Below are positions 20,786 through 30,492 of a stretch of 64,000 bases of DNA, piece after piece. The position numbers were made by a program, and so were the translations under genes. The stretch is from the NCBI GenBank assembly GCA_041662245.1, contig JBAZSW010000001.1, positions 11,714-75,713 of the forward strand, in the 5' to 3' direction. The DNA comes from Parcubacteria group bacterium. GTDB lineage: Bacteria; Patescibacteriota; Minisyncoccia; Moranbacterales; UBA9337. The notes under the pieces were generated by a model, which ran no database searches, was not told the origin of the DNA, and saw only the letters and a list, made by a program, of their open reading frames with translations. How positions within the stretch are numbered: position 1 is the stretch's first letter; every line of letters begins with the position of its first letter.

Positions 20786-20902
20786 CTGTCCGTAGGAAAT
20801 TTCCAAATCCCAATTTCCAAACAAATATTAAATATCAAATTCCAAATTTAAAAAATAATTCGTTAATGCGTTAACTCGTTAATTAAATAATAAATCAAAA
20901 AT

Positions 20903-22540: not shown

Positions 22541-24499
22541 ATGCCATTTAAAATAAATTCAAAATTTAAGCCTGCGGGAGATCAGCCCCAAGCTATCGAG
22601 AAACTGACGCAGGGAATCAAAAGGGGAAAGAAATTTCAAACGCTTTTGGGTGTGACAGGAAGTGGTAAGACTTTTACTATTGCTAATTTGATTGAAAGAA
22701 TTCAAAAGCCAACGCTAGTAATTGCGCCCAATAAAACTTTAGCTGCTCAATTAACTCAAGAATTTCGAGCTTTTTTCCCCAACAACGCCGTAGAATATTT
22801 TGTTTCTTATTATGATTATTATCAACCCGAGGCTTATATAAGTTCTACTGATACATATATTGAAAAAGAAACTCAGATTAACGACGAAATTGATAAGTTA
22901 AGGCATAGTGCGACAGCTTCAGTCTTATCTCGCAAAGATGTAATTGTGGTAGCAAGCGTTTCTTGTATCTATGGTTTAGGTAGTCCTGCTAGATATGAAG
23001 AAATTACTTTAACCTTAAAAAAGGGTGGTTCATTTACACGTGAAGAAGCGATAAAAGGTTTAATCGGAATGTATTATATGCGCAGTGATATCCTCGAGCG
23101 TGGAAAGTTTCGAGTAATTGGAGAGACAATTGAAATAGTTTCTCCCGGCAGAGAAGTTATCGTCAGAGTGGAGATTGCTAATGACAAAATTCAAAGCATT
23201 TCTGAGAGGGATATGCTTACTCAGGAAAAGATGAGTGATTTAGAAAAAGTGATGATTTTTCCGGCTAAACATTTTGTGATGCCCGAAGAAATAATGGGAG
23301 ACGTTCTAAAAGAAATTGAGAGTGAGATGAAAAAAAGAGTGGCCTATTTCGAGAAAAAAGGAAATATTTTGGAAGCCCAGAGGATTGAAAAAAGAACTAA
23401 ATATGATATTGAGATGATGCGTGAAGTGGGGTATTGCAGTGGAATAGAAAATTATTCCCGTTATCTCAGTGAGCGAAAAGCCGGTGAATCTCCTTATACT
23501 CTAATAGATTATTTTGGGAAAGATTTTCTGATGGTAATTGATGAATCTCATGTCACTATTCCGCAAATTGGAGGAATGTATTTTGGCGATAGATCTAGAA
23601 AAGCTAATCTGGTAGAAAATGGTTTTCGTCTTCCGAGTGCGATGGATAATCGACCATTAAAGTTTACCGAATTTGAAAATAGGATCAATCAAGCTATTCT
23701 GGTGAGTGCTACCCCCTCTAAATACGAAAAAGCTAATTCACCGACAGTGGTAGAACAAATTATCCGTCCTACAGGATTGATTGATCCAGAATTAATTGTA
23801 AGAAGTGCCAAAACCCAAGTCAAAGATGTACTAGAAGAAATAAAAACTGTTTCGGCGCGCGGGGAAAGAATTTTAATTACTACGCTGACAAAAAAACAAT
23901 CCGAAAATTTAGCTGAGTTTCTTAAAGAAAATAAAATTAAATCTAATTACCTTCATTCCGGCGTGGATACCCTAGATAGAATTAAAACTTTGGAAGATTT
24001 GCGACGCGGAAAATTCGATGTATTGGTGGGAGTTAATCTTTTGCGGGAAGGCTTGGATTTGCCGGAAGTTTCTTTGGTGGCAATTTTTGATGCGGATAAA
24101 GAAGGCTTTTTGCGTAGTGAAACATCGCTTATCCAAACTATCGGTCGAGCCGCTCGAAACGTGATGGGGCGGGTGATTCTTTACGCAGATAATATTACTG
24201 GTTCGATGGAAAGGGCGATTCGAGAAACGGAACGAAGACGCACAATTCAAAGAGCTTATAATAAAAAACATCATATCACTCCTAAAACAATTAAGAAAAA
24301 AATTCAATCTATTGTGGACCATGAAATTAATCCAGTCTTATCTAGCGATTTTGTCAGATTGGAAACCTTGGAAGATATTAATGGCTATATAAAACAAAAA
24401 GAAAAAGAAATGAAAGAAGCAGCTAAAAATTTAGAATTCGAGCGAGCGTCAATTATCAGGGACGAAGTTTACGAATTAAGAAAGTTGCGAGTTAAATAA
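22541..24499 (+). CDS. uvrB: Excinuclease ABC subunit B.
   Basis: The N-terminus MPFKINSKFKPAGDQPQAIEKL matches E. coli UvrB. Walker A GVTGSGKT, helicase motifs, C-terminal UVR domain. Confidence 0.92.
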   Translation: MPFKINSKFKPAGDQPQAIEKLTQGIKRGKKFQTLLGVTGSGKTFTIANLIERIQKPTLVIAPNKTLAAQLTQEFRAFFPNNAVEYFVSYYDYYQPEAYISSTDTYIEKETQINDEIDKLRHSATASVLSRKDVIVVASVSCIYGLGSPARYEEITLTLKKGGSFTREEAIKGLIGMYYMRSDILERGKFRVIGETIEIVSPGREVIVRVEIANDKIQSISERDMLTQEKMSDLEKVMIFPAKHFVMPEEIMGDVLKEIESEMKKRVAYFEKKGNILEAQRIEKRTKYDIEMMREVGYCSGIENYSRYLSERKAGESPYTLIDYFGKDFLMVIDESHVTIPQIGGMYFGDRSRKANLVENGFRLPSAMDNRPLKFTEFENRINQAILVSATPSKYEKANSPTVVEQIIRPTGLIDPELIVRSAKTQVKDVLEEIKTVSARGERILITTLTKKQSENLAEFLKENKIKSNYLHSGVDTLDRIKTLEDLRRGKFDVLVGVNLLREGLDLPEVSLVAIFDADKEGFLRSETSLIQTIGRAARNVMGRVILYADNITGSMERAIRETERRRTIQRAYNKKHHITPKTIKKKIQSIVDHEINPVLSSDFVRLETLEDINGYIKQKEKEMKEAAKNLEFERASIIRDEVYELRKLRVK

Positions 24500-24509
24500 G
24501 TGAAATATT

Positions 24510-24870
24510 ATATTATCCGTGCGAGCGAAGCCCAGTTATTCCGCAAACCGAAATTTTACGGGGTGAAAAAGCTAGTGTTATTAGAGATGAGATTTATGAA
24601 TTGAGAAAGATCTCCAAATAAATTTTGAATTTAAAATTTTGAATTTTAATTCAATTTTTAATGTTATAATATTTAATATTTCCTCCTCTCCATCTTTGTG
24701 CTCAAAGGGGGAGATGTCCAGCAGGACAGAGGGGGTTGTTTCCAGTATTCAATGCTCATTTAATATTCAATGATACAATGTTTGATAGGTATGTCATTTC
24801 GACCGAATAAATTTATGCCTGTCATGTTGAATAACATGGTAATCATAAATTTATGCATGGAGAAATCTTA
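24510..24870. repeat. Composite inverted-repeat arm A. It holds a partial U, V (ctcaaagggggagatgtccag) and a full U in reverse (atgtcatttcgaccgaata...gcataaatttatgc).
   Basis: The reverse complement of 24790-24862 aligns with 27261-27332. The V motif is present in the opposite orientation to arm B. Confidence 0.65.
24565..24621 (+). pseudogene. Remnant duplicate of the uvrB 3' end (UVR-domain tail), out of frame and downstream of the real stop.
   Basis: Translates to EKASVIRDEIYELRKISK*, compared with the genuine C-terminus EFERASIIRDEVYELRKLRVK*. It is separated from the uvrB stop by 66 bp carrying a partial family-U repeat. Confidence 0.6.
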
Positions 24871-24952
24871 AGTTTTCAATTGTAGGCAGTTTTGATGGAA
24901 CCATGATTGATAGTATAATAGCCACATTGATATAATAATTCTTATAAAATTT

Positions 24953-25558
24953 ATGAAAGCAGTTGTCTTTGATTTTGATGGTGTAATCCATGATACCTAT
25001 GAATTAGCTTATCAGATAAATGTTGAAATTTTAGGAGGATCTTTGACTCGAGAACAGCATAGAGATTTTTTTAATGGAAACATGTTTGAGCGGGTGATAG
25101 TAGATAAGGAAAAAGAAAAGATAGAAAGTGAAAATTTTTATAAGTTGCAAAATGAAGCATTTAAACATCTTGAAATAGATGAGAATATTAGAAAAAATTT
25201 AGAAAAATTATCTAAAAAATATTCTTTGTTTATAATTTCATCTAATCAGGAAAAAGCCTTAAATAGCTATTTTAAAAATAACAAATTTACACATATTTTT
25301 AAAGAAATACTAGGGTCAGAAACACATCAATCAAAGGTTGAAAAATTTAAGTATTTGTTTGAAAAATATGCCTTGGTTGCTGATGATTGTATTTTTGTTA
25401 CAGATACTCTGGGAGATATTTTGGAAGGAAACAAAGTCGGCGTAAAAACAATTGCAGTTGATTTTGGTTTTCATAAAAGAGATCGGCTTGAAAAAGGTAA
25501 ACCGTTTAAGATAGTTTCTAGCTTTGATGAAATAATAGAAATAATATCGAAGCTGTAA
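24953..25558 (+). CDS. HAD-superfamily hydrolase.
   Basis: Motif I VVFDFDGVIHDT plus downstream HAD motifs (SSNQ; DD near the C-terminus). Confidence 0.75.
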   Translation: MKAVVFDFDGVIHDTYELAYQINVEILGGSLTREQHRDFFNGNMFERVIVDKEKEKIESENFYKLQNEAFKHLEIDENIRKNLEKLSKKYSLFIISSNQEKALNSYFKNNKFTHIFKEILGSETHQSKVEKFKYLFEKYALVADDCIFVTDTLGDILEGNKVGVKTIAVDFGFHKRDRLEKGKPFKIVSSFDEIIEIISKL

Positions 25559-25597
25559 TCCGGGGAATAAATTTTAAAAATAATTAATAAAAAATAT

Positions 25598-26047
25598 ATG
25601 GAAATAAGATCAAAATTGGATTTTCCGGCTGGAGCACTGACCAATTTTGCTCCACATGCTTTTGAAATTGATGATGTAAAATGTGCTTCTATGGAAGGGT
25701 TTTTGCAATCCTTAATAATAGATGACGAGAAAATTCAAAAAGAAATTTGTCAGTTAGTGGGAATTGAAGCCAAAAACTGGGGGATTGCACAAGATGCTGT
25801 TTGGCAAGAAACCCAATGCTTATGGTGGAAAGGCGAGAAATATGATCGCCACGGAAAAGAATATCAGGAGCTTCTTGATAGAGCTTATGCAGAACTTTTC
25901 AAAAACGAAAATTTTAGAAAAGCTCTCTTGGCAACGGGAGATGAAATTTTAACGCATTCAATTGGACACGCTGACCCATATGAAACAATTCTTACTGAGA
26001 AAGAATTTTGCGATAGGTTGATGGAATTGAGAAAAAGAGCAAAGTAA
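25598..26047 (+). CDS. NADAR (YbiA-like, DUF1768) family protein.
   Basis: LTNFAPHAFEIDDVKCASMEGFLQSL, FRKALLATGDEILTHS and DRLMELRKRA align with E. coli YbiA (FSNFAAWPI...SEHYFQAQKF; LRALLLATAPAKLVEHT; LLMELREQL). Confidence 0.75.
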   Translation: MEIRSKLDFPAGALTNFAPHAFEIDDVKCASMEGFLQSLIIDDEKIQKEICQLVGIEAKNWGIAQDAVWQETQCLWWKGEKYDRHGKEYQELLDRAYAELFKNENFRKALLATGDEILTHSIGHADPYETILTEKEFCDRLMELRKRAK

Positions 26048-26174
26048 ATTTCAAATTTTGAATTTCGGTTCAATTTTTAATATTTAATCTAGTATAAATT
26101 CTATTTCTTTTTTAGCAATAAAATTTAAACGGCTACCCATTGGATTTCAACAGGTAGCCGTTTCAGTAAGAAAA

Positions 26175-26534
26175 CTATTTGGTTTCTGATTGGATGAGTT
26201 GGCAGACCTCCTCTTTAAATATCAACCATCGCATAAATATAGGGCTTACATGTTCCGTCCACCATTGTGCTGCGTCAGGGCTTTTTTCTTTCAATATTTG
26301 TATGGCGATAGATGTTTCAACGGGATATCCATTTGGATTTTCCGCTTTACCACCGAGTACCCCCATTGCAATCGTATGAGTTGGCAAGTTCTCTGCAACT
26401 GGCATGACGAGTCCGATCCATGCTTTTCTTACCCACTCAGGTGCTTGACCGGGGGGAACATCAATAATTTTTTTCTTGTGCCACGGTGTACCTCCTATTG
26501 TTTGTTTGTGAGGGACTATTCCTTCTAAAAACAC
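26175..26534 (-). CDS. Hypothetical protein in a GC-richer segment (roughly 45% GC by eye).
   Basis: 119-aa ORF with a GTG start and protein-like composition. The overlapping + strand ORFs are Cys/Trp-rich and look spurious. Confidence 0.4.
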   Translation of the reverse strand: MFLEGIVPHKQTIGGTPWHKKKIIDVPPGQAPEWVRKAWIGLVMPVAENLPTHTIAMGVLGGKAENPNGYPVETSIAIQILKEKSPDAAQWWTEHVSPIFMRWLIFKEEVCQLIQSETK

Positions 26535-26590
26535 TCTTTAATCTTTTGAAATAGTATAAAGTCTAAACTGTAATTTTGCAAATTATTATT

Positions 26591-26648
26591 TTTTTTCAAA
26601 GAGTGTCACTTTTGTCCACGTGGACAAAAGTGACACTAATTTTTTTTG
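26591..26648. terminator. 36-bp perfect palindrome (AGTGTCACTTTTGTCCAC|GTGGACAAAAGTGACACT) flanked by T6 and T8 runs. Likely a bidirectional terminator, possibly an operator.
   Basis: Perfect dyad at 26602-26637 seen directly in the sequence. Confidence 0.55.
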
Positions 26649-26985
26649 AAATAGATTTTTATTGCTTTTTGTTTTTGGATATGTTTAGATAGGGTTAGCT
26701 ATTTTTATAAAGTTTTTTTGGTGATTCGGCTATAGTAGAATACTCTAACTAAGAAGGAGGGTGTTTTAATGAAAAAAATCTTGCATTATGCATCATATCA
26801 ATTTTGTTGACTGCTGGCGGAGGGTTGATAGTGGGACTGAGTGACCAAGATGCTCTTGGTGTAGTTCTTGTTGTAGCGGGTTTTGCAGGTATATTTTTTT
26901 CTTTCTATAGAGAATATTGGAGAATGGCATATGATGAATCTGATGAAATGTCCCAAGAAATCGATTCATAAGGAGGAAAGTGCTT

Positions 26986-27153
26986 ATGTGCTGGAGAGAT
27001 AATATCAGCAGAGCAAGAATGTGCTCACTTTGCGGTCAAGAATATTATGGAGATCTCGGGCATAGAAATTGCCCAGCTCTCGAGAAGGAAGAAGAGCCAG
27101 AGGAAAAAGTTATCAAACTTAATAAAGATTTCTGGAGGGAATTCTACGAGTGA
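26986..27153 (+). CDS. Hypothetical 55-aa Cys-containing (CxxC...C) small protein.
   Basis: Strong SD aggagg 9 nt upstream of the ATG. MCWRDNISRARMCSLCGQEYYGDLGHRNCP. GC-richer segment. An alternative-frame track ORF 27047..27229 has no SD. Confidence 0.3.
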   Translation: MCWRDNISRARMCSLCGQEYYGDLGHRNCPALEKEEEPEEKVIKLNKDFWREFYE

Positions 27154-27249
27154 TGAAAAATTGTGGCATTCATTTGCCCTGGTGGAAAGAGTTTTGCGCT
27201 CACCATTGGGGCATTTTTTTATTTTATAATTTATAAATTTTAAATTCTA

Positions 27250-27600
27250 GATCTCTCCACGCATAAATTTCCGAGTACCCCAGTTATTCAACGGGGCACG
27301 CAGAAATTTATTTGGTCGAGATGACATATTTTTTAATATGGGTAATTGAAACTAACCCTCTCTATTTTTTGGACATTTCCCCCTTTGAAAAGGGGGAGAG
27401 GGGAAACTTATTGAATATTGCAACATTGAAAATTGATTGGAAATTGGGATTTGGGATTTGGAAATTGCTTAAAGGGTGACATTTCTAAGAAAATGGTATA
27501 ATATAGGTAGACGATAATAGTTGATTGTCATTGCGAATTAGCTAGATTTCTCCACTCCTATTTTTTTGAGTACAAAAAATTATCCGGTCGAAATGACATA
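27250..27600. repeat. Composite inverted-repeat arm B. It holds a full U in forward orientation, V in reverse (ttggacatttccccctttgaaaaggggga) and a partial U in forward orientation (ggtcgaaatgacata).
   Basis: See arm A. The motif ggtcgaRatgacata appears at 27314 and 27584, and its reverse complement at 24797. Confidence 0.65.
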
Positions 27601-27660
27601 GTGAGTAAGGGCGAGATGATAGAGCATAAAGTCGAGATGACAAACGATAATGTTAAATAT

Positions 27661-30492
27661 ATGAAAGATAGAATTTTTGTAAAAGGAGCTAGAGAACACA
27701 ATCTAAAAAATATTGATCTCGAAATTCCTAGAAATAAATTAATAGTTTTTACAGGGCTTAGCGGTAGTGGCAAGAGTACCTTGGCTTTTGATACGATTTT
27801 CGCTGAAGGACAAAGAAGATATTTAGAAAGTCTTTCTAGCTACGCTCGCCAATTTTTAGGTCAAATGGATAAGCCGGATGTGGATTATATTGAAGGACTT
27901 AGTCCAGCTATTTCTATTGACCAAAAATCAGTTTCTCGCAATCCTCGTTCAACGGTGGGAACTATTACCGAAATTCATGATTATTTGCGTTTGCTTTATG
28001 CTAAAATAGGAATTCCTCATTGTCCAGAATGTGGGCGAGAAATTAGCAAAATGTCGATTGATGAGATTGTCGATCGAGCTATTGAGAATGGAGCTAATAA
28101 AGAAATAGAAATTATGGCTCCTATTGTGCGAAGTCGTAAAGGTGAATATAGTACACTTTTGGAAGATATGTATAAAAGTGGATATTCCACTGCCAGAGTT
28201 AACGGTAAAATGATAAAATTAATTAATTGGAAAGAAATAAAATTAGCTCGTTACAAAAAACATAACATTGACATTGTAGTTGATAAATTAAAAATAAATG
28301 ATGATAATCTGAGTCGAATCTTCGAGGGAGTTGAAAGAGCTTTAAAAATTGCCAAGGGAATTGTGATGATCAAGAATGGGAAAAAAGAAAGTTCTTTTAA
28401 TCAAAATTTAGCTTGTCCGGTGCATGAAATAGAATTTCCCGAGTTGGAACCTCGGTTGTTTTCTTTCAATTCTCCTTTTGGGGCTTGCGAAGCTTGTGAG
28501 GGATTAGGAACAAAAAAGGAGTTAGATGAAAAATTGATTATTCCCGACAGAAACAAAACCATCGGTGAGGGGGGTATTTTACCTTGGAGTTATAAGTCTA
28601 ACAATTATTTAGGGACAATAATGCGCGCGGTAACTAATTATTATCACATTGCCGAAAATAAAAGACTTAAAGATTTAAGCAAAAGTGATTTGGATACATT
28701 GCTTTATGGCAGCGAAGAGCAGGATTTGATTAGCGTAAAATATCATTTTCGTACAGGGGTACGGGAATATTTTATGACTTGGAAAGGAATTGTCGGTTGG
28801 ATGGAAGACAGATATAAAAAAACTACTTCGGAGGCAGTCAGGAATGATATTGAAAAGTACATGAGTCAAAACCCTTGTTCTACTTGCAAGGGGAGTCGTT
28901 ATAAAAAAGAAGTGCTTCTAGTAAAAGTGGGAAAGAAAAATATCGATGAAATTTCTCATGAAAATATTTTAGATGCGCTAAATTTTTTTAAAAATTTAAA
29001 ATTAAATAAAAAAGAAGAACTTATCGGAAGTCGGATTGTGCAAGAAATTATCAACCGGCTAACTTTTTTAAATGATGTGGGTCTAAATTACATTACTCTT
29101 TCTCGTGGAGCCAAAACTTTAAGCGGAGGAGAATCTCAAAGAATTAGATTAGCTTCCCAAATTGGCTCGCAATTAGTGGGTGTCTTGTATATCCTTGATG
29201 AACCATCAATCGGTTTACATGCTCGCGATAACGCTAGACTTTTAGAAACTCTAAAAAATTTAAAAAGATTAGGGAATACCGTAATTGCCATTGAGCACGA
29301 TGAAGAAACGATGCGAGGAGCGGATTATTTGGTCGATATCGGTCCAGGAGCAGGTAAGCATGGAGGAGAAATTGTCGCAGCGGGAACTCCCGAAGAAGTG
29401 ATGAAAAGTAAGAAATCCATTACAGCACAATATTTGAATGGGACTAATAAAATTGAGATTCCTCATATTAGAAGGAAAGCTTGGGGTAAAAAAAGTATTA
29501 TTTTAAAGGGAGCTAGAGAAAATAATTTAAAAAATCTTAATGTAGAGTTTCCTCTCAATGTCTTTACTTGTGTGACAGGAGTTTCGGGAAGTGGTAAATC
29601 CACTTTAGTTAAGGATACTCTCTACAAAGCACTTTCTAATAAATTACATAAAACTCTAGAAATTCCTGGCACGCATCAAGAAATAATCGGAGCTCACAAT
29701 ATTGATAAGATAATAATGGTTGATCAGGCACCGATTGGACGAACCCCTCGTTCTAATCCTGCGACATACACAGGATTGTTTACTTTTATTCGTGATTTAT
29801 TTGCTACAACTCGCGATGCTAAAGCTCGGGGTTATAATCCGGGAAGATTTTCTTTTAATGTTAGTGGCGGACGTTGTGATAATTGTAAAGGTGAAGGATT
29901 TTTAAAAATTGAAATGCAATTTATGCCAGATGTTTATCTGCCCTGCGATGTGTGTAAAGGAAAAAGATATAATCGAGAAACTTTGGAAGTAAAATATAAA
30001 GGAAAAAATATTTCAGAAGTTTTAGCAATGACTGTCAGTGAGGCATTAGAATTTTTTGAAAATTTTACGATTATTTCCGATAAGTTAAGAGTTTTAGACG
30101 AAGTAGGGTTGGGCTATATCGAACTGGGGCAAAGTGCCACTACTCTAAGTGGAGGAGAAGCTCAAAGAGTAAAGCTGGCTACGGAACTTTCACGTCGTTC
30201 TAGCGGACATAATATTTATATTTTAGACGAACCGACCACGGGACTTCATTTTGAAGATATTAAAAAATTATTGGATATTCTCAATCGTTTGGTGGATGCC
30301 GGCAACACTGTAATTGTAATTGAACACAATATGGATATGATTAAATCGGCGGATTGGCTTATTGATCTCGGCCCTGAAGGAGGAGAGAATGGGGGAAAAA
30401 TTATCGTGACGGGTACGCCTGAAGAAGTAGCCAGATGGCATAAAGAAAGTTATACAGGGAAATATTTGAGAAAAGCTTTAGGGCTTAGATGA
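27661..30492 (+). CDS. uvrA: Excinuclease ABC subunit A.
   Basis: Start chosen at MKDRIFVKGAREHNLKNIDLEIPRNKLIVFTGLSGSGKSTLAFDTIFAEGQRRYLESLSSYARQFL by homology to the E. coli N-terminus. The track ORF begins at GTG 27601, and ATGs at 27616 and 27637 are also possible. Two ABC ATPase modules and zinc-finger Cys clusters. Confidence 0.92.
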   Translation: MKDRIFVKGAREHNLKNIDLEIPRNKLIVFTGLSGSGKSTLAFDTIFAEGQRRYLESLSSYARQFLGQMDKPDVDYIEGLSPAISIDQKSVSRNPRSTVGTITEIHDYLRLLYAKIGIPHCPECGREISKMSIDEIVDRAIENGANKEIEIMAPIVRSRKGEYSTLLEDMYKSGYSTARVNGKMIKLINWKEIKLARYKKHNIDIVVDKLKINDDNLSRIFEGVERALKIAKGIVMIKNGKKESSFNQNLACPVHEIEFPELEPRLFSFNSPFGACEACEGLGTKKELDEKLIIPDRNKTIGEGGILPWSYKSNNYLGTIMRAVTNYYHIAENKRLKDLSKSDLDTLLYGSEEQDLISVKYHFRTGVREYFMTWKGIVGWMEDRYKKTTSEAVRNDIEKYMSQNPCSTCKGSRYKKEVLLVKVGKKNIDEISHENILDALNFFKNLKLNKKEELIGSRIVQEIINRLTFLNDVGLNYITLSRGAKTLSGGESQRIRLASQIGSQLVGVLYILDEPSIGLHARDNARLLETLKNLKRLGNTVIAIEHDEETMRGADYLVDIGPGAGKHGGEIVAAGTPEEVMKSKKSITAQYLNGTNKIEIPHIRRKAWGKKSIILKGARENNLKNLNVEFPLNVFTCVTGVSGSGKSTLVKDTLYKALSNKLHKTLEIPGTHQEIIGAHNIDKIIMVDQAPIGRTPRSNPATYTGLFTFIRDLFATTRDAKARGYNPGRFSFNVSGGRCDNCKGEGFLKIEMQFMPDVYLPCDVCKGKRYNRETLEVKYKGKNISEVLAMTVSEALEFFENFTIISDKLRVLDEVGLGYIELGQSATTLSGGEAQRVKLATELSRRSSGHNIYILDEPTTGLHFEDIKKLLDILNRLVDAGNTVIVIEHNMDMIKSADWLIDLGPEGGENGGKIIVTGTPEEVARWHKESYTGKYLRKALGLR

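Follow-up and report, generated by a model that had tools for sequence, protein, structure and literature searches.

Gene and repeat content of the uvrB-uvrA spacer

The window analyzed here is a 64-kb stretch of DNA from the Moranbacteria, a lineage of the candidate phyla radiation, and the locus in question is the 3.16-kb spacer that separates the repair genes uvrB (22541–24499) and uvrA (likely start at 27662). The UvrB protein of the window is 91–93% identical to those of Candidatus Moranbacteria metagenome-assembled genomes (MAGs), although an exact look-up of its sequence returned no record; the 119-aa ORF of the spacer is 100% identical to a protein of a "Parcubacteria group bacterium" MAG. 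The spacer holds a block of genes bracketed by two inverted, non-coding arms, A and B, each assembled from short repeat modules designated U, V, and W. Comparison with public contigs of relatives (L-numbers; P-numbers denote proteins of relatives) leads us to the reading, to which we assign a probability of roughly 60%, that the arms are paralogous, oppositely oriented copies of a recurrent non-coding W-V-U composite lining the edges of a strain-variable slot between uvrB and uvrA, the contents of which change by recombination and not by transposition or inversion of the whole block. The composite is built from dispersed, structured repeat families that populate the intergenic DNA of Moranbacteria and other bacteria of the candidate phyla radiation. 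The features of the locus, in window coordinates, are as follows.

22541–24499, plus strand: uvrB, the left core gene; open reading frame (ORF) with a product 100% identical to P0010, named excinuclease ABC subunit UvrB.
24515–24621, plus strand: scar of a second uvrB 3' end (class-2 remnant), reading ...ASVIRDEIYELRKISK and a stop codon at 24571–24621, interrupted at about 24528–24572 by a CCCAGTTATTC...GGGG hairpin fragment.
24622–24680, plus strand: W1, the AT-rich, terminator-like outer module of arm A; TTGAATTttAATTCAA and then a T run, directly 3' of the stop codon.
24685–24741, plus strand: V of arm A, a 57-nt GC-rich structured repeat of a dispersed family (DNA fold −14.1 kcal/mol, z = −3.3).
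24784–24869, minus strand: U of arm A, long form (covariance-model score 65.8 bits, E = 3e-12); outer helix P1 ATTTC/GAAAT; 5' (AGAT) end toward the cargo.
24892–24936, plus strand: promoter-like sites of the HAD gene, TTGATA-18-TATAAT (11/12) and TTGATG-16-TATAAT (10/12), starting about 20 nt past U; region conserved in L142 and L145.
24953–25558, plus strand: HAD-family hydrolase gene (Pfam HAD_2, 2.2e-22), at the same place after U(−) in L142 and L145.
25598–26047, plus strand: gene for a T4 gp30.3-like protein of the NADAR superfamily (Pfam Phage_30_3, 6.8e-54; NADAR family only 0.03).
26047–26084, plus strand: W2, a second, direct W copy after the gp30.3 stop; 38 nt, 87% identical to 24628–24665.
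26127–26163, minus strand: terminator hairpin of the minus-strand gene, a 16-pair stem and then a T-rich tail; conserved in L005 and L145.
26175–26534, minus strand: hypothetical protein, annotated at 119 aa (homologues 86–153 aa, mostly 96–99); 43.5–47% GC over 26200–26499.
26602–26637, no strand: 36-bp perfect palindrome between divergent promoters, terminator-looking on the plus strand (DNA fold z = −7.6).
26980–27153, plus strand: 57-aa Cys-rich, zinc-ribbon-like ORF (weak Pfam DZR match, 0.002), conserved in the L019 slot.
27174–27225, plus strand: terminator module X, GCCCTGGTGG...CACCATTGGGGC and then a T run; two copies in L019.
27248–27334, plus strand: U of arm B, long form (69.5 bits, E = 5e-13); P1 ATCTC/GAGAT; 5' end toward the cargo.
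27352–27410, minus strand: V', the degenerate inverted V of arm B, seen as an inverted repeat in the arm alignment; orthologous V' upstream of uvrA in L005.
27400–27465, minus strand: W', the AT-rich module of arm B, with tandem GGGATTTG units, from the arm alignment; a similar 8-mer run lies at 20798–20820.
27476–27504, plus strand: promoter-like site of uvrA, GTGACA-17-TAATAT, the right edge of the variable segment; 84–86% identical in L020, L142, and L019.
27543–27606, plus strand: U copy C, short form, in the uvrA leader (85.2 bits); orthologous U(+) in the L142 leader.
27662–30492, plus strand: uvrA, the right core gene; ORF with ATG 27662 as the likely start, the start region being conserved in L005, L019, L020, and L142.

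The arms are mosaics of dispersed repeats

Read as its reverse complement, arm A (24642–24881) aligns collinearly with arm B (27236–27445) over about 240 nt; with indels, the identity is about 78%. The local alignment score of this pair is 116, compared with 22.6 ± 2.9 (maximum 37) for 300 dinucleotide shuffles and 48 for the best unrelated 400-nt chunk of the window, and the longest exact match between the arms is an AT-rich run of 13 nt. A first-pass annotation of the window had described composite inverted repeats of roughly 350 bp around the cargo; the extended, collinear inverted identity is indeed there, far above chance and more than short AT-rich, low-complexity matches, but its length is about 240 nt rather than 350. 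The sub-elements named in that annotation exist as well, U at 24784–24869 (−), 27248–27334 (+), and 27543–27606 (+), and V at 24701–24720 (+) and 27370–27389 (−). Outward from the cargo, both arms have the order U, V, W, and outside the collinear arms only isolated pieces recur, namely the short third copy of U, which lies in the uvrA leader, and, at 24532, a CCCAGTTATTC fragment. Within the window, U and V are confined to the uvrB-uvrA spacer.

The modules also occur beyond the window. V is a second dispersed family, a 57-nt GC-rich hairpin of which the arm A copy is 96–98% identical to copies at unrelated loci in L031, L058, L010, L118, L127, and L129; the arm B copy is degenerate, and BLAST found no other close copies of it. 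W is AT-rich and terminator-like and is placed after stop codons: W1 forms a direct repeat with 26047–26084, has 14 BLAST matches (its own match in the window included), and occupies the same post-stop position in L127. In this last contig the complete W-V-U(−) order of arm A recurs behind the stop codon of an unrelated gene. Given that the modules are dispersed and that the W-V-U order recurs, the arms represent a recurrent mosaic that occurs here twice, in inverted orientation. Neither arm is a copy of an insertion sequence; both are composed of dispersed repeats that are short, non-coding, and mobile-looking in the manner of miniature inverted-repeat transposable elements (MITEs) or repetitive extragenic palindromic (REP) sequences, much as the first reading of the sequence had surmised. 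A domain search of the ORFs in 24500–27600 found no transposase or recombinase domain between the arms, also in agreement with that reading.

Short tandem 7–8-mers (GGGATTTG, TATGCTC, TATGTAT) are abundant in the intergenic DNA of this lineage, for example at 20798–20820 and 27437–27466 of the window, at about 7691–7750 of L010, and at about 3490–3530 of L011.

U is a structured repeat family kept by compensatory change

U is a three-helix hairpin of 55–87 nt. An outer 5-bp helix, P1 (ATYYC/GRRAT), leads to an invariant internal loop (TCCA opposite GTC) and a single closing pair (C-G or U-A), with an inner part made of a 9–10-bp AT-rich helix, an invariant GAGTAC loop, and a TGACA tail; the consensus begins (T/G)AGATYYCTCCA... 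and ends ...GTCGRRATGACA. The rarer long form, to which the copies of both arms belong, carries an extra 23-nt hairpin in the loop and is also present in L051 and L130, with a near-identical counterpart of the arm B copy at L051 5501–5587. When a covariance model built from eight copies was run over about 1 Mb of related DNA, it recovered 198 unique copies. An exact-pattern scan derived from the first four copies gave 6 matches in species-representative genomes, all in three Moranbacteria MAGs, and with a looser pattern, matches came from more than 120 stretches of metagenome and from no viral contig.

The structure is maintained by covariation: among 109 hits (89 distinct rows), pairing holds in 94.7% of cells and both sides have changed in 276, a level reached by none of 500 shuffles, and pairing falls to 31–51% when the 3' partners are slid by 1–3 columns. 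Of 215 copies, 202 have complementary bases in the two variable P1 pairs, for which the search pattern had left every combination open. A small hairpin proposed by RNAalifold (GTC-GAAAT-GAC) was rejected: its loop contains the A/G position, and the perfect covariation of this position with the 5' ATYYC speaks for the long-range outer helix P1. A scan of 24300–27800 against Rfam 15 (E ≤ 5) returned nothing at U or V, the only matches being microRNA-like ones to the 36-bp palindrome and weak chance matches at other non-U positions, all below gathering scores, and in the literature we found nothing relevant on this repeat or on a link between GIY-YIG nucleases and REP sequences.

About 90% of U copies are intergenic. 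Their orientation with respect to flanking genes is unbiased (29 versus 25 and 32 versus 25), positions after stop codons are as frequent as those before start codons, and the neighbors are ordinary housekeeping genes, with no protein family enriched among the 185 ORFs within 600 nt. This distribution bears on the idea that U acts as a cis-regulatory element of DNA-repair genes (an operator or leader RNA), as V perhaps does too, the arms being duplicated control regions of uvrB, uvrA, and the HAD gene. Both the window and L142 do have a U copy in the leader of uvrA, past the conserved promoter, and three GTCGARATGA units spaced 21–23 nt apart precede the uvrA start. However, U sits beside housekeeping genes of all kinds, in either orientation and on either side of them, its copy upstream of uvrA is missing or degenerate in L005 and L020, and no Rfam family matches it, so we regard a regulatory role of this kind as improbable. 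More specific identities fared no better: a LexA-type operator, suggested by GTC-N5-GAC, was dropped because U is dispersed and orientation-free, and an integron attC site because the U consensus lacks the GTTRRRY core and the interval lacks an integrase. TIGR-Tas arrays, met with in the literature, were provisionally set aside on an outline of that system. In our reading, U would serve, as single-stranded DNA (or RNA) in its folded form, as a site for a trans-acting protein.

Reduced versions of U also exist. Two degenerate 3' half-units (27609–27623 and 27630–27644) follow copy C. In L130 (2150–3100), mini-U arrays consist of units of about 30 nt, such as AGATTTCTCCAtaaaGTCGAAATGACA, comprising the outer helix and internal loop only, and half-units of similar appearance precede the uvrA start in the window (27609–27644).

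A variable gene slot between two core repair genes

Everything that the first-pass annotation had listed between the arms, that is, the HAD gene, the NADAR-like gene, the ORF of about 45% GC, the 36-bp perfect palindrome (26602–26637), and the Cys-rich ORF, is present. Its portrayal of the cargo as GC-richer and atypical holds for the minus-strand ORF and the small ORFs (40–47%) but not for the HAD gene (19.5–32%) or the gp30.3-like gene (37–39%; all in 200-nt windows), against a window background of about 33% and a uvrB gene that locally reaches 45%. The bracketed segment is indeed variable cargo: the window and its relatives show six different gene contents at this slot.

Window: HAD, gp30.3, 119-aa ORF, small ORFs.
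L142: HAD and gp30.3 only.
L145: HAD, gp30.3, 168-aa ORF, NUDIX, GH1 fragments; neither uvrB nor uvrA is on the contig, and the match is limited to the U(−)-HAD-gp30.3 block and flanking modules.
L005: 86-aa ORF, 98-aa ORF, GH1; uvrB is not on the contig, which ends in an arm A-like U/V.
L020 and L021: GH1 only.
L017 to L019: ABC transporter, three small ORFs, radical-SAM enzyme, 220-aa ORF.

Homology with L020 stops at 24514, 15 nt past the uvrB stop, and resumes at 27474, at the uvrA promoter, which places both arms inside the variable segment, at its extreme ends. The bracket itself is shared: U(−) after uvrB and U(+) before uvrA are also found in L019 and L142, L005 has the inverted V...V' pair, and L020 retains remnants only.

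Pieces of the contents can be followed from one relative to another. The U(−)-promoter-HAD-gp30.3 block is 80–82% identical over about 1.2 kb among the window, L142, and L145; 26971–27246 of the window, which includes the zinc-ribbon-like ORF, is 71% identical over 280 nt to L019 5770–6038; and at the L019 equivalent of the 36-bp palindrome there is a hairpin of different sequence. In one case a coding sequence alone has been exchanged, the 119-aa gene of the window and the NUDIX gene of L145 lying exactly between the same promoter and 5' untranslated region (UTR) and the same terminator hairpin (window 26057–26161 and 26488–26593 versus L145 2363–2462 and 2827–2931); the NUDIX stop codon falls inside the hairpin. 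That the promoter, 5'-UTR, and terminator modules of the slot might be dispersed repeats themselves was rejected, as they occur at the orthologous locus only.

Several further observations concern the slot genes and their assembly. The HAD phosphatase and T4 gp30.3/NADAR-like genes form a conserved travelling pair (window 24953–26047, L142 557–2002, L145 593–1687), which in the window and L142 lies between uvrB and uvrA; the pair may be linked in function to DNA repair or ADP-ribose metabolism. The gp30.3-like protein has 1007 homologues at E ≤ 1e-20, the named ones largely from bacteria of the candidate phyla radiation. Near the start of the 98-aa gene, the window is 2 nt short relative to L005 in an A run (26440–26475, minus strand). 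This difference puts the usual start codon, which stands behind a good ribosome-binding site, out of frame, and a GTG 63 nt upstream yields the 119-aa ORF; a frameshift, a pseudogene, and a sequencing error in the homopolymer are all possible readings of it. L002 and L003 share an identical 98-aa gene (P0006) and its right flank and differ on the left (CYTH and an ABC transporter versus an isoleucyl-tRNA-synthetase-like gene), so that a rearrangement boundary lies directly beside this homologue. Assemblies break at the locus: L016, a 1.27-Mb contig of a near-complete genome, ends within a few nucleotides of the uvrB stop, and L001, a Logan contig, ends at window positions 24812, inside the U of arm A, and 26631, inside the 36-bp palindrome, as expected from assembly breaking at repeats. 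In practical terms, this repeat breaks assemblies.

How the slot contents may change

A trace of past exchange lies at the left edge. The last 20 or so codons of the live uvrB gene are of one type (class 1, ...DEVYELRKLRVK), and directly behind them stands the interrupted class-2 end (...ASVIRDEIYELRKISK and stop), which matches the allele of L019, L142, and P0039; window positions 24565–24611 are 85% identical to the real uvrB 3' end of L142. Tail classes are also swapped between otherwise near-identical UvrB proteins (P0013 versus P0016, P0026 versus P0029), indicating that crossovers fall repeatedly in the last ~60 nt of uvrB. Inside the slot, module X is a direct repeat in L019, and a deletion between its copies would yield the arrangement of the window. 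Together, the uvrB scar, the tail swaps, and the module X repeat argue for homologous and illegitimate recombination, not transposition. We infer that the slot's content is exchanged with that of related genomes by recombination, the crossovers falling within the final ~60 nt of uvrB and at the uvrA promoter, and that it probably also changes by deletions between repeated modules inside the slot and by swaps of single coding sequences.

Two kinds of mobility first proposed for the block find no such footing. As a composite transposon it fails on several counts: the arms contain no insertion sequence or transposase, there is no target-site duplication (no direct repeat at 24621/24622 versus 27445–27475), in public contigs the cargo DNA was found at the orthologous slot only and the cassette nowhere a second time, and U flanks are missing from the 98-aa homologues and from the closest gp30.3 homologue beyond the slot (in L146). 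U/V brackets that stay fixed at one locus while the inside varies are the opposite of a moving unit.

Nor does the segment behave as invertible. A DNA inversion switch, in which the cargo would be flipped by recombination between the arms so that different genes are expressed, would draw on the inverted repeats around a block with promoters on both strands, which is the sole point in its favor. The arms are only 78% identical, and their longest exact match, 13 AT-rich nucleotides, is too short for efficient homologous recombination, given the minimal pairing lengths of that process. No invertase or other recombinase domain was found in 24500–27600, where the neighbors are uvrB and uvrA; the 98-aa gene, GH1, HAD, gp30.3, and the zinc-ribbon ORF have the same orientation relative to uvrB/uvrA in every relative (contig) that has them; and L001, an independent contig of 1.8 kb, is identical to and collinear with the window. 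We therefore hold such a switch to be extremely improbable.

Inverted U doublets and a nested GIY-YIG nuclease

U copies that lie close together do so in a particular way. In a first count, all 28 pairs less than 400 nt apart were inverted, 24 head-to-head, 4 tail-to-tail, and none in tandem; a later count gave 43 distinct inverted doublets. Spacers are mostly 14–44 nt, copies more than 400 nt apart show no head-to-head preference, and the P1 variants of the two partners nearly always differ (3 of 43 doublets homotypic versus 27% expected, P about 9e-4). The compact doublets fit the form of a MITE, with two inverted, non-coding units of about 50–66 nt and termini TGTCAT...ATGACA; no target-site duplication was seen in the 22 doublets inspected. 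The opposite orientation of the arm U copies, 5' ends inward, pointed out early on, is how doublets of this family are usually built, and arms A (ATTTC) and B (ATCTC) follow the pattern with 2.4 kb where a spacer of 14–44 nt is usual.

Among 852 ORFs in U-bearing loci, a sample centered on U copies, only small GIY-YIG nuclease genes are flanked head-to-head by U. With diverged homologues included, such a gene lies inside a head-to-head pair in five independent loci (L014, L081/L125, L130, L135, L091). The nested genes encode 93–107 aa, stand 6–32 nt from each U, and differ down to 53% protein identity; their flanking U copies belong to several variants, ATCCC and ATTGC among them.

L014: 1385–1675, nested GIY-YIG gene.
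L081: 2574–2855, nested GIY-YIG gene.
L125: 1177–1401, nested GIY-YIG gene, a copy with an internal deletion.
L130: 2350–2673, nested GIY-YIG gene.
L135: 10878–11150, nested GIY-YIG gene.
L091: 12270–12539, nested GIY-YIG gene.

The unit of U and GIY-YIG present in L014 is absent at the orthologous site of L015. By weak E-values, the closest solved relatives of the protein are the SLX1 structure-specific nucleases and UPF0213. Sequence context makes the GIY-YIG nuclease a candidate trans-acting partner of U, and with it a candidate for the mobilization in trans that was proposed when no transposase was seen at the locus. A tentative extension, which we consider somewhat against the odds, is that U is the end of mobile units of about 450 nt, U(−)-GIY-YIG-U(+), from which gene-less doublets and solo copies would have colonized intergenic DNA throughout the Moranbacteria and other members of the candidate phyla radiation, and that pairs such as arms A and B can come to bracket ordinary genes, marking or creating slots of fast turnover.

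The IS200 TnpA of L070 was considered as a mobilizing enzyme and rejected, having its own CCCCGGGGCAAGCCCCGAGG hairpin ends and a nearest U about 3.6 kb away. It is an ordinary IS200/IS605 transposase gene (L070 3600–4200) with the hairpin CCCCGGGGCAAGCCCCGAGG on both sides, unrelated to U.

Whether the same logic extends to the uvrB-uvrA block is more doubtful. On that account, the U(−)/U(+) pair of the arms would be the two ends of a non-autonomous cargo element, a MITE-pair cassette, and a nuclease encoded elsewhere, with the GIY-YIG protein as candidate, would move or capture what lies between. The invariably inverted, mostly head-to-head arrangement of close copies over short spacers would be consistent with it, as would the dissimilar variants within doublets, as expected of distinct left and right ends, the head-to-head polarity of arms A and B, the nested GIY-YIG genes of the five loci, and the presence/absence difference between L014 and L015. 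However, the bracket stays between uvrB and uvrA in at least three relatives with different contents, neither a second cassette copy nor a target duplication was found, the cargo genes have their own locus-specific promoters and terminators, and the head-to-head preference vanishes in copies more than 400 nt apart. The 64-kb window contains no GIY-YIG gene, and GIY-YIG enzymes are not known to act as transposases. We judge a cargo element of this kind unlikely.

Weighing the proposed recombining slot

Recombination across a slot lined by inverted W-V-U composites remains our preferred explanation, against which some of the evidence must be set. In arms A and B, U stands head-to-head with its counterpart, and the two differ in P1 variant, which is exactly how compact doublets and GIY-YIG units are built, so a transposon-like reading of the U pair retains some plausibility. 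The U-V spacer has no clear homology between the two arms, which could accordingly be independent insertions and not a single inverted duplication. Contigs were compared, not reads, and rare inversion or excision variants would escape such a comparison; the copy counts of U and V for the source genome cover its 64-kb window.

Bacteria of the candidate phyla radiation have tiny genomes, and little is known of their mobile DNA and of the turnover of their gene content. The present locus shows a compact, well-delimited slot between two core repair genes, with different genes in each close relative, and a strongly structured, apparently undescribed repeat family that lines the slot and is scattered through the intergenic DNA of the sampled related contigs. 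The slot is an ordinary kind of feature; the U family and its association with GIY-YIG genes appear to be new. If the reading of U as the end of ~450-nt units is true, it would amount to a partnership like that of REPINs (REP doublets) and REP-associated tyrosine transposases (RAYTs), founded on a GIY-YIG structure-specific nuclease and not on an HUH transposase. Should the nested GIY-YIG protein prove to be the partner of U, repeat-nuclease associations of the REP/RAYT type would have been invented independently a second time, and genome plasticity would become open to testing in organisms that do not yet grow alone in culture.

Comparison with known systems

U resembles the REP sequences and REPINs of Proteobacteria in being a short, structured, imperfect palindrome, intergenic, orientation-independent, and present in many copies, with a structure kept by compensatory changes, a tendency to form inverted doublets, and no target duplication. 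RAYT genes sit between inverted REPs, and likewise a small nuclease gene is flanked here by inverted copies of the repeat. Unlike REP sequences, U is longer, has three helices with invariant internal-loop and terminal-loop sequences, and lacks the conserved GTAG at the 5' end. In contrast to REP-RAYT systems, the nested gene encodes a GIY-YIG nuclease and not an HUH/Y1 enzyme, and the host is a bacterium of the candidate phyla radiation. Among ORFs of 80 aa or more in about 1 Mb, a motif screen found no RAYT, the sole Y1 gene being the IS200 transposase of L070, which scores 123.5 bits with NF033573 and 21.6 with REP_Tyr_transpos, below the cut-off of 80.

The arms, for their part, recall the bacterial interspersed mosaic elements (BIMEs) of Escherichia coli, which are also intergenic mosaics of short modules (here U, V, and W) in varying order and orientation, often after stop codons; the sequences are unrelated and the modules of the arms larger, and a further trait of BIMEs is that they bind host proteins. 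The slot is comparable to strain-variable islands exchanged by homologous recombination in their flanks, with a fixed position, different cargo, and crossover scars in the flanking gene, but is set apart by its size (1.8–6.9 kb, 1–7 genes), by structured repeats at its edges with no integrase or tRNA site, and by the one case in which a single coding sequence was swapped within the same promoter and terminator. Finally, in its presence/absence between orthologous sites the GIY-YIG gene is like the free-standing GIY-YIG homing endonucleases (T4 Seg), and in its closest solved relatives, SLX1 and UPF0213 at weak E-values, the protein is like SLX1-type nucleases. Unlike either, it is nested between dispersed structured repeats and, at a length of about 95 aa, lacks a separate DNA-binding domain.

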